DNA of 31,867 nt, from the NCBI GenBank assembly GCA_048938025.1, contig JBHLMP010000044.1, positions 1 through 31,867 of the forward strand, given 5' to 3'. This DNA is from Promethearchaeota archaeon (lineage in GTDB: Archaea > Asgardarchaeota > Lokiarchaeia > Sigyniarchaeales > SOKP01). Of the stretch, positions 25,389-27,015 are shown piece after piece. The notes beneath the pieces were generated by a model. That model was not told where the DNA came from and made no database searches. It was given only the letters and a program-made list of their open reading frames with translations. The translations under genes and the position numbers were made by a program. Within the stretch, counting starts at the first letter, position 1, and each line of letters begins with the position of its first letter.

Positions 25389-25751
25389 ATGAAGCTCTTA
25401 GCAGAAAAGGATATAAAAATTGAAGATATTACAATTTATTTAAATCTTTTTCAATTACATAAAAGTTATCTTTTACTTATATCAGATCAAGAAAATATGG
25501 GAATTGGAAATGTAACATTAGGAACACCCCCTCCTATTGAAGGTTTAAAATCAACCACAGCATCATATAGTTTGTTTGGTGTAGACCCAAAACTCTTAAG
25601 TACATTGATAGCTGAAAGAGCTTCAAATATTCTTAAAGCACCTGTATTGCTTCTCTTATTTCTGAAAATTAAGAAAAAGGATAAGGAAATAGCTAAACCA
25701 CTTATAGATTTCATAAATAACGTCTTAAATGCTATTAAAGAAAAAAAATAA
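25389..25751 (+). CDS. PAC4/PSMG4-like proteasome assembly chaperone
   Basis: 120 aa with YLLLISD...IGNVTLGTP...SLFG...LSTLIAERAS.ILKAPVLL, resembling the PAC3/PAC4 fold. Confidence 0.65.
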   Translation: MKLLAEKDIKIEDITIYLNLFQLHKSYLLLISDQENMGIGNVTLGTPPPIEGLKSTTASYSLFGVDPKLLSTLIAERASNILKAPVLLLLFLKIKKKDKEIAKPLIDFINNVLNAIKEKK

Positions 25752-25753
25752 AA

Positions 25754-25917
25754 TGCAGGGAGTGGGATTTGAACCCACGTACTCCTGTGAGACCGGATTT
25801 CTCATCAGAAATTGCAATAATCAACGGTAATCGTGTTTAACAGATCTTGAGTCCAGCTTATGAGATTTTTTCGCTCAAAAGAGTCCGGCACCGTTGACCA
25901 GGCTTGGTTATCCCTGC
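25754..25917 (-). tRNA. tRNA-Leu (CAA) with two introns: 25851-25882 (32/33, 32 nt) and 25799-25845 (37/38, 47 nt), separated by a 5-nt exon 25846-25850. CCA is not encoded.
   Basis: GCAGGGA/TCCCTGC acceptor stem, A73, long variable arm TCTCACAGGAGTAC, GTGGG-TTCAAAT-CCCAC T-arm and CCGGA/TCCGG anticodon stem. Both introns have 3-4-3 BHB geometry. Confidence 0.9.
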
Positions 25918-25987
25918 TTGAAGAATTTTTTACATAAATTAATACTATGAAAAATAAAAACTATGATAAAAACCCTCTAGTATTCAG

Positions 25988-26301: not shown

Positions 26302-27015
26302 TCAATCTTTCGAGATAATAGTCCCACTTATAGCTTTATCTCCACTCCAAAATTTTTCGAATTCACTAAGCTCTTTCCCAGACATTAGAAACACTTTAAT
26401 ATTACTGCGTTTTAAGATTTGTAAAGAAACAGCATCAAAAATACGATATTCTCCTGCAGCAGCCTGTTTAGAATAGGGCAGTTCTAAAATTAATTCTTGT
26501 AGTTCATCGTAATTAAGGTGTTTGAATATTTTTGCATCATCAAACTTTTTTGGATCTTTATCATAAATACCATTTACATCTGTTAGAATTACTAAATCTT
26601 GTGCGCCTATAAACTCTGCTACTTCAAGAGCTACAGAAGTTGTAGACTGTCCTGGTTGCAATCCACCCATTATAATAAATTTATTAAAAAGAATTGCTGT
26701 AGACAATTCCTCAATTGATTTTGGTACAAGTGGATAAGCAAAATCTTGAAAAGATGCTATAAGTAATTTCGAATTAATACGGGATATTTCAATACCAAAA
26801 GCATCACATAATGCTTCTGATCCATTAAACGATCTCACTGCATTTATATACTCTCTTGCAACTAGTCCCCCGCCACAAACAATAACATGAGTACCTGAAC
26901 ATTTCCTGCTTTTAAAAATCTTACAAAATTCAGCAATTTTTTTTAAATTAATTTTGCATTCTTCAGTAAATAATAGTGATCCGCCGATTTTTATGACGAC
27001 ATTTTTATCTTTCAT
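26302..27015 (-). CDS. pyrH: Uridylate kinase
   Basis: VIKIGGS, VCGGG.VAREYI, GGLQPGQST..VA, TDVNGIYDKDPK and AG.Y..FD motifs. Confidence 0.95.
   Translation of the reverse strand: MKDKNVVIKIGGSLLFTEECKINLKKIAEFCKIFKSRKCSGTHVIVCGGGLVAREYINAVRSFNGSEALCDAFGIEISRINSKLLIASFQDFAYPLVPKSIEELSTAILFNKFIIMGGLQPGQSTTSVALEVAEFIGAQDLVILTDVNGIYDKDPKKFDDAKIFKHLNYDELQELILELPYSKQAAAGEYRIFDAVSLQILKRSNIKVFLMSGKELSEFEKFWSGDKAISGTIISKD

Follow-up and report, generated by a model that had tools for sequence, protein, structure and literature searches.

How can a tRNA mature when its anticodon sits on a five-nucleotide exon between two introns, and when the splicing motifs of those introns lay claim to the same letters? 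The question is raised by a locus in a stretch of 31,867 nucleotides (nt) from a Promethearchaeota archaeon (Lokiarchaeia; assembly GCA_048938025.1, contig JBHLMP010000044.1, positions 1 to 31,867), called the window below. Positions 25917-25754 of its minus strand were confirmed as a genuine tRNA-Leu(CAA) gene of a Loki-type Asgard archaeon, with two introns in the anticodon loop. We consider it highly probable that this is a working gene whose two introns are removed by protein enzymes at bulge-helix-bulge (BHB) motifs, most likely intron 1 first and intron 2 second.

The gene (25754..25917, minus strand, as for all parts of it given below) measures 164 nt from G1 to the discriminator base A73, and CCA is not encoded at its 3' end. 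The body is that of a class II tRNA, with an acceptor stem GCAGGGA/UCCCUGC, a D-arm, an anticodon stem CCGGA/UCCGG, a long variable arm, a T-arm GUGGG/CCCAC and a discriminator A. Positions 1-32 form the 5' exon (25883..25917), which holds the acceptor strand, the D-arm, the 5' strand CCGGA of the anticodon stem and C32; the end of this exon, CCGGAC (positions 27-32), lies at 25888-25883. Intron 1 (25851..25882, 32 nt) follows at position 32/33. Next comes the micro-exon U33-C34-A35-A36-G37 with the anticodon CAA (25846..25850), and then intron 2 (25799..25845, 47 nt) at the canonical position 37/38. The 3' exon opens with A38 at 25798 and UCCGG at 25797-25793. When both introns were removed in silico, ARAGORN recognized an 85-nt tRNA-Leu(CAA); precise excision restores a canonical tRNA.

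The unspliced gene escaped the standard tools. ARAGORN with default settings reported the window as free of tRNA genes, and the Rfam tRNA model left the unspliced gene unmatched even at E values up to 10. With introns allowed, ARAGORN proposed a Lys(CTT) gene with one intron of 67 nt; this candidate was rejected on the grounds that the CUU/UUU triplet is not conserved in orthologues and that the body is of the Leu type. No other Leu(CAA) gene was present among the 32 ARAGORN calls for the whole assembly, and the gene is apparently its only tRNA-Leu(CAA). It is probably the sole decoder of UUG in these genomes, in which case translation would require two splicing events, one after the other, within seven nucleotides.

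Two overlapping splicing motifs

The first motif, BHB1, has a central helix between CCGG (positions 27-30; 25885-25888) and CUGG near the 3' end of intron 1 (25853..25856), with four of four pairs formed, one of them G-U, and with bulges ACU and ACU. Its inner stem, CUUUUGAG/CUCAUAAG, forms seven of eight pairs around one U-U mismatch. The outer helix has two pairs at most, and because no more pairs than these lie outside the motif, BHB1 is of the relaxed HBh' type. In the second motif, BHB2, the strand CUCA, made of C32 (25883) and U33-A35 (25850-25848), pairs at all four positions with UGAG (25801..25804), and the bulges are AGA and AAA. Its outer helix is the anticodon stem, once intron 1 is gone. 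Both introns thus display a central helix of four base pairs and two 3-nt bulges on opposite strands, together with at least one flanking helix, namely h' for intron 1 and the anticodon stem for intron 2.

The two motifs overlap. BHB1 employs intron-1 nucleotides 27-32 and U33 as helix strand and bulge, and BHB2 employs the nucleotide before U33 together with U33-A35 as a helix strand. Since intron 1 sits within the strand that BHB2 needs, the two structures are mutually exclusive, and since they share nucleotides, cutting must be sequential with refolding in between. A canonical BHB2 requires, by its geometry, that C32 stand next to U33. A preliminary description of this DNA had placed the anticodon on a 5-nt micro-exon between introns at 32/33 and 37/38, had drawn two BHB motifs and had let them compete for the same nucleotides. 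The letters and coordinates proved to be as it gave them, both motifs were found with complete central helices and 3-nt bulges, and the overlap is real; the covariation among Asgard orthologues that it proposed to look for was found as compensatory changes in the BHB1 helix and in its inner stem.

Orthologues were collected at two levels. A DNA search matched 32 of 41 related genomes and yielded 18 full-length orthologues within the genus, which form alignment A1. When the whole family was searched, 72 of its 135 genomes had a match at E values up to 1e-8. The 84 loci gave 77 gene models, with no model obtained from seven of them (L023, L024, L159 and L163-L166). Of these models 72 were parsed, L025-L028 and L030 being dropped for their other stems or anticodons, and 67 of the parsed genes belong to the family of the window. 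Both introns occur in 17 of the 18 genus orthologues and in 59 of the 67 family genes; the remaining eight family genes lack intron 1. The micro-exon UCAAG is invariant in all 18 sequences of A1 and the 5' exon is nearly so, while both introns vary.

Natural genes without intron 1 delimit it exactly. Exact absence combined with a long intron 2 was seen in L002, L117, L142, L151 and L153. L002, a member of A1, reads CCGGACUCAAG where intron 1 would sit; it scores 42.3 bits with the Rfam tRNA model (cut-off 29), and the alignment places a 49-nt insertion after its anticodon, in agreement with the limits drawn for intron 2. The g15 genes L160-L162 are also without intron 1; they have a D-loop intron, and their intron 2 is only 21-25 nt long. 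A DNA contig from sequencing run X3 skips 32 nt at intron 1, with a 6-nt ambiguity of the boundary that equals the GGACUC repeat. This contig is an intron-1-less DNA allele of a relative and not spliced RNA. A second family search aimed at further intron-1-less lineages returned mostly matches to the 3' exon, and in the other family, f2, the 14 genomes contained only the three genes already known.

Pairing in both motifs is well kept. In A1 the BHB1 central helix is paired in 95.7% of cells and the BHB2 helix in 100%. Four of the eight pairs of the intron-1 inner stem have changed on both sides, and full compensation is seen at three pairs of the variable arm. Of the 59 family genes with intron 1, 47 form all four pairs of the BHB1 central helix, 11 form three and 1 forms two. 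The inner stems of L118 and L122 have sequences unrelated to those of the others. Pair 28:i29 has changed from C:G to U:A in six genes, from lineages with the CUGG stem, which is a compensatory change. The 3' strand of BHB2 reads UGAG or UGGG in 62 of 64 genes (L001-L018 and L113-L158), and the BHB2 helix after splicing has all four pairs in 62 of them.

A relaxed motif such as BHB1 calls for an enzyme able to cut it. Two proteins in the assembly combine both EndA domains (PF01974/PF02778), one of 201 amino acids (aa) on contig 66 and one of 200 aa on contig 33. The nearest matches of the 201-aa protein are catalytic subunits from heterotetrameric crenarchaeal enzymes (3p1z_B, 3ajv_B, 2cv8 and 2zyz_B), and its alignment with the Aeropyrum catalytic chain 3p1z_B runs from end to end, the N-terminal loop region included. 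Where chain 3ajv_B has an A, this protein has a histidine, and its close relatives are Promethearchaeota/Promethearchaeia proteins, among them Loki_b31. The 200-aa protein has no histidine in the stretch taken to correspond. Asgard archaea are described as having an (alpha-beta)2 EndA with an L1 insert (PMC5829648), a type able to cut relaxed motifs. The pair fits the (alpha-beta)2 type, and the host would accordingly possess the kind of enzyme that a relaxed BHB1 demands.

Predicted folds and the D-arm complement in intron 2

Fold predictions favor the exposure of BHB1 in the precursor. The minimum-free-energy fold of the window precursor is the BHB1 conformer at -55.1 kcal/mol, compared with -43.0 kcal/mol when the true anticodon stem is forced. 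The RNAalifold consensus of 44 distinct two-intron precursors likewise contains BHB1. After in silico removal of intron 1 from 42 sequences, the consensus contains the anticodon stem and CUCA/UGAG, and the same combination, with 3-nt bulges and hence as a canonical BHB2, is found for the six natural genes without intron 1. Removal of intron 2 instead, from 42 sequences, gives a consensus with the true anticodon stem and not BHB1.

These folds suggest the following course. The primary transcript would fold so that BHB1 is presented, a heterotetramer-type EndA would cut there, and a ligase would join the ends. The RNA would then refold into the anticodon stem and BHB2, and intron 2 would be removed.

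Intron 2 contains a further conserved element. The block ACCGUUGAUUA (25828-25818) is complementary to the D-loop and the 3' strand of the D-stem, UGGUCAACGGU (25900-25890), and its core CCGUUGA is near-invariant in the family. Across 37 distinct 47-nt family introns, conservation reaches at least 90% at positions 19-26 (CCGUUGAU), between variable flanks. When intron 2 was compared with the 5' exon, the longest Watson-Crick match measured 7-8 nt in 60 of 64 genes, and in 58 of 64 it was located at the UCAACGG region; against shuffles of each sequence, the p values had a median of 0.02 and reached 0.49 at most. The resulting 11-pair helix is 87.9% paired in A1, shows no covariation because its exon side is invariant, and is present both in the minimum-free-energy fold of the precursor and in the RNAalifold consensus of two-intron precursors. 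Among the 18 intron-bearing ARAGORN calls in the genome, only this gene has a complement of at least 7 nt to the D-arm, and CCGTTGA near a T-arm motif occurs at one place in the genome, this gene. Among the matches listed by a literature search, nothing relevant to an intron block complementary to the D-arm appeared.

What might such a block do? By topology, the helix between D-arm and intron 2 can coexist with the anticodon stem only in a pseudoknot, and once this helix has formed, positions 27-30 are free for BHB1, which hints at a fold switch that gives intron 1 precedence. As a tentative and rather doubtful proposal, CCGUUGA would be an intron-encoded switch of this kind: by pairing with UCAACGG of the D-arm it would free positions 27-30 for BHB1, block BHB2 and so direct the removal of intron 1 first. 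The same pairing may keep the primary transcript out of the cloverleaf, and the switch may have made 32/33 a permissive site for intron gain. If the block does steer folding, an intron would be programming the processing order of its own precursor.

There is a fair possibility, short of an even one, that the block has nothing to do with order and is either a relic of the origin of the intron or an element of the excised, possibly circular intron; it could even be an antisense guide acting on the D-arms of tRNA-Leu, and the intron of Haloferax volcanii tRNA-Trp offers a precedent for a functional guide (PMC4090602). A role tied to intron 1 sits poorly with the presence of the block in all five intron-1-less family genes with a long intron 2, and in L020, which belongs to the other family and is also without intron 1. 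The three g15 genes, which combine the lack of intron 1 with a short intron 2, do not have the block, which speaks against this rival reading; L019 and L021, again without intron 1, do not have it either. Box C has the consensus RUGAUGA and box D the consensus CUGA. No conserved C or D box was found in intron 2: a box C/D guide was considered and rejected, as the D-like CUGA before UGAG is replaced by CUAA, CCAA, AUAA or UUUA in orthologues. Rfam gave only sub-threshold snoRNA matches, all on the other strand. A pure relic, moreover, is unlikely to stay at least 90% conserved while its flanks are scrambled.

A natural test of the intron-2-first route

Intron 2 could instead leave first, or the two introns in either order, with CUGGA at the 3' end of intron 1 as a stand-in for the 5' strand of the anticodon stem. 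In the window's gene this surrogate stem, CUGGA/UCCGG, has five of five pairs and could substitute for the true stem, and the last nucleotide of intron 1, a C, completes CUCA/UGAG. The surrogate stem is likewise perfect in 41 of the 59 family genes. In a red alga the order of removal follows BHB stability, so the order here may be kinetic (PMC3728597).

The stem sequence itself accounts for much of this. Since CCGG is self-complementary, any partner of positions 27-30 has the look of a copy and would pair with positions 40-43 as well, and for the same reason the GGACUC repeat needs no special explanation. The family supplies a clean natural test of which pairings selection acts on, in the form of eight genes with the non-palindromic stem CUGGA/UCCAG. 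The corresponding end of intron 1 reads CCAG in three of them, CUAG in three and CUGG in two, and so matches the complement of the stem, and not a copy of it, in six of the eight. The BHB1 central helix has all four pairs in every one of these genes. The surrogate stem has five of five pairs in only two, four in three and three in three (L144, L154 and L155). Furthermore, the last nucleotide of intron 1 is an A in L114, L144, L154 and L155, and in these four genes the BHB2 helix has three of four pairs before removal of intron 1 and all four after it. The pattern of substitutions indicates that selection maintains the BHB1 pairing and does not maintain the look-alike stem of an intron-2-first route. 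For the window's own precursor, the conformer with a forced surrogate stem and BHB2 (-47.0 kcal/mol) lies 8.1 kcal/mol above the BHB1 conformer, and removal of intron 2 first leads, as seen above, to a consensus that does not contain BHB1. We therefore regard the intron-2-first route as unlikely. The preliminary description had held that ordered splicing is required and that the GGACUC copy might let intron 2 be cut first; an order remains plausible, with intron 1 in front according to the in silico evidence, and the proposed use of the copy fares badly, being imperfect in six of the eight informative genes.

Several observations weigh against the order intron 1 first, besides the intact surrogate stem of the window's gene. 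The inner helix of BHB2 is weak, with two pairs and then a mismatch. In the consensus of the 42 sequences stripped of intron 1, the 5' bulge has 1 nt, because GAUC finds a further partner in the GAUU of the block. Single-sequence folds of the intron-1-less intermediate prefer the helix between D-arm and intron 2 over BHB2; the former comes to -48.0 and the latter to -39.7 kcal/mol in the window's gene, with -41.1 and -38.0 kcal/mol in L007 and -39.2 and -38.2 kcal/mol in L154. On nearest-neighbor energies alone, the second step is therefore not predicted to be spontaneous; these models leave tertiary contacts of the tRNA, proteins and pseudoknots out of account. In L016 the BHB1 helix is degraded to two of four pairs, and eleven genes have three of four only. 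Cleavage is presumed to occur after the second bulge nucleotide, a rule that we have assumed and that fits the invariant UGAG 2 nt before A38. Finally, 20 sequencing runs held part of the stretch and one of them is recorded as RNA, a leaf-litter metatranscriptome (share 0.16); the contigs it gave all came from a relative and carried introns, a spliced form was not among them, and the run is uninformative on expression. Taking all of this together, we judge ordered splicing with intron 1 first to be plausible.

That the gene is a decaying or non-functional copy, with its BHB-like pairings as leftovers, is very improbable: standard tRNA detectors do fail on it and the BHB1 helices of some orthologues (L016, L018, L157) are degraded, but the exons are near-invariant, both introns are kept in 59 genes from several genera with compensatory changes, the variable arm has its three compensated pairs, and the ARAGORN calls for the genome offer no other Leu(CAA).

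Genome context, further introns and known systems

The tRNA gene occupies the intergenic gap between open reading frames at 25389-25751 (plus strand) and 26302-27015 (minus strand). A T-rich run directly after the discriminator base (25741..25753, minus strand) is a likely transcription stop. The first of the two reading frames, of 120 aa, ends 3 nt from the 3' end of the tRNA, and its end is overlapped by the T-rich run. The 5' part of an archaeal 23S rRNA (1100 model positions) lies at 1-1178 on the minus strand and runs off the start of the window. A scan of the 31.9-kb window at Rfam gathering thresholds did not report a 16S rRNA, and the rRNA genes appear to be unlinked here.

Further introns were encountered in related genes. 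The T-loop holds a third intron, about 30 nt long, in 10 of the 64 genes of the set L001-L018 and L113-L158 (L003, L004, L005, L016, L018, L140, L143, L156, L157 and L158; five of the 18 in A1); the gene of the window lacks it. The sequences of these insertions fall into at least two unrelated types, a hint that such introns were gained repeatedly or turned over. Record 17 of run X20, from the leaf-litter RNA library, matches window positions 25753-25918 with a T-loop insertion of 33 letters, and has 41 other letters in place of 73 in its anticodon region; it comes from an intron-bearing relative, and carried-over DNA is an equally possible source. The loci L159 and L163-L166 were considered as intron-1-less Leu(CAA) lineages and rejected, being other isoacceptors of sister genera with D-loop introns: L159, L163 and L166 are Leu-UAA genes, and L164 and L165 are Leu-GAG genes. 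The D-loop sequence GGUCAA recurs within each of these D-loop introns, and the 5' part of the intron is complementary to this second copy. In L120 and L121 (genus g12), a stretch resembling the 5' end of a tRNA-Leu, with the acceptor strand and the start of a D-arm, lies about 125 nt upstream of Leu(CAA) and could represent a further interrupted Leu gene or else a relic.

Given that ARAGORN and the Rfam tRNA model both fail on it, the gene shows why the tRNA sets of Asgard genome bins look incomplete. The whole assembly, with an estimated completeness of 96.7%, gave only 25 Rfam tRNA matches above the cut-off, many of them 97-182 nt long, and ARAGORN assigned several implausible anticodons (att, act, aga, aac, agc and atc). 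From the few, long matches and the implausible anticodons it follows that many more interrupted tRNA genes are probably hidden in this assembly.

How does the locus compare with known systems? Nested multi-intron pre-tRNAs of Thermoproteales are reportedly spliced in a dependent order, and Sugahara et al. 2007 and Tocchini-Valentini et al. 2009 are the works said to describe it. Some archaeal pre-tRNAs have a last intron whose BHB forms only once the other introns are gone (PMC3728597, PMC3978253). The gene studied here would share with the nested Thermoproteales pre-tRNAs a last BHB that arises upon removal of the other intron, and sequential cutting and joining; it differs in that the host belongs to another phylum and that the introns are 5 nt apart in the anticodon loop. 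The ARMAN-2 pre-tRNA-Pro(GGG), whose introns lie at 53/54 and 59/60, also has two introns in one 7-nt loop around a very short middle exon, but that loop is the T-loop, the motif is a strict hBHBh' and the enzyme is of the epsilon2 type (PMC3239211). The conserved intron segment that pairs with its own exon recalls the box C/D guide in the Haloferax volcanii tRNA-Trp intron, a loose likeness, as the segment described here is without conserved C/D boxes and faces the D-arm instead of positions 34 and 39 (PMC4090602). Ordered removal of BHB introns has been demonstrated experimentally in Cyanidioschyzon merolae, with the 37/38 intron leaving last as is proposed here; that organism, however, is a eukaryote, its BHBs fold independently, and the order is ascribed to the stability or position of the motifs (PMC3728597).

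The closest setting is provided by other Asgard archaea, in which multi-intron tRNA genes that carry non-canonical introns have been published (PMC11291895; preprint 10.64898/2026.10.13.758758). As in the present case, the genes described by Valentin-Alvarado et al. 2024 and Goswami et al. 2026 have an Asgard host and are missed by standard tools. The two reports focus on Atabeyarchaeia and Jordiarchaeia (Freyr), and a term search of the preprint's main text turned up neither names in Lokiarchae- or Promethearchae- nor anything on splicing order or micro-exons; its supplements may list cases. Order-dependent splicing and multi-intron Asgard tRNA genes are thus already published, and what this locus adds to them is a test of which pairings selection keeps, together with a conserved block within an intron.

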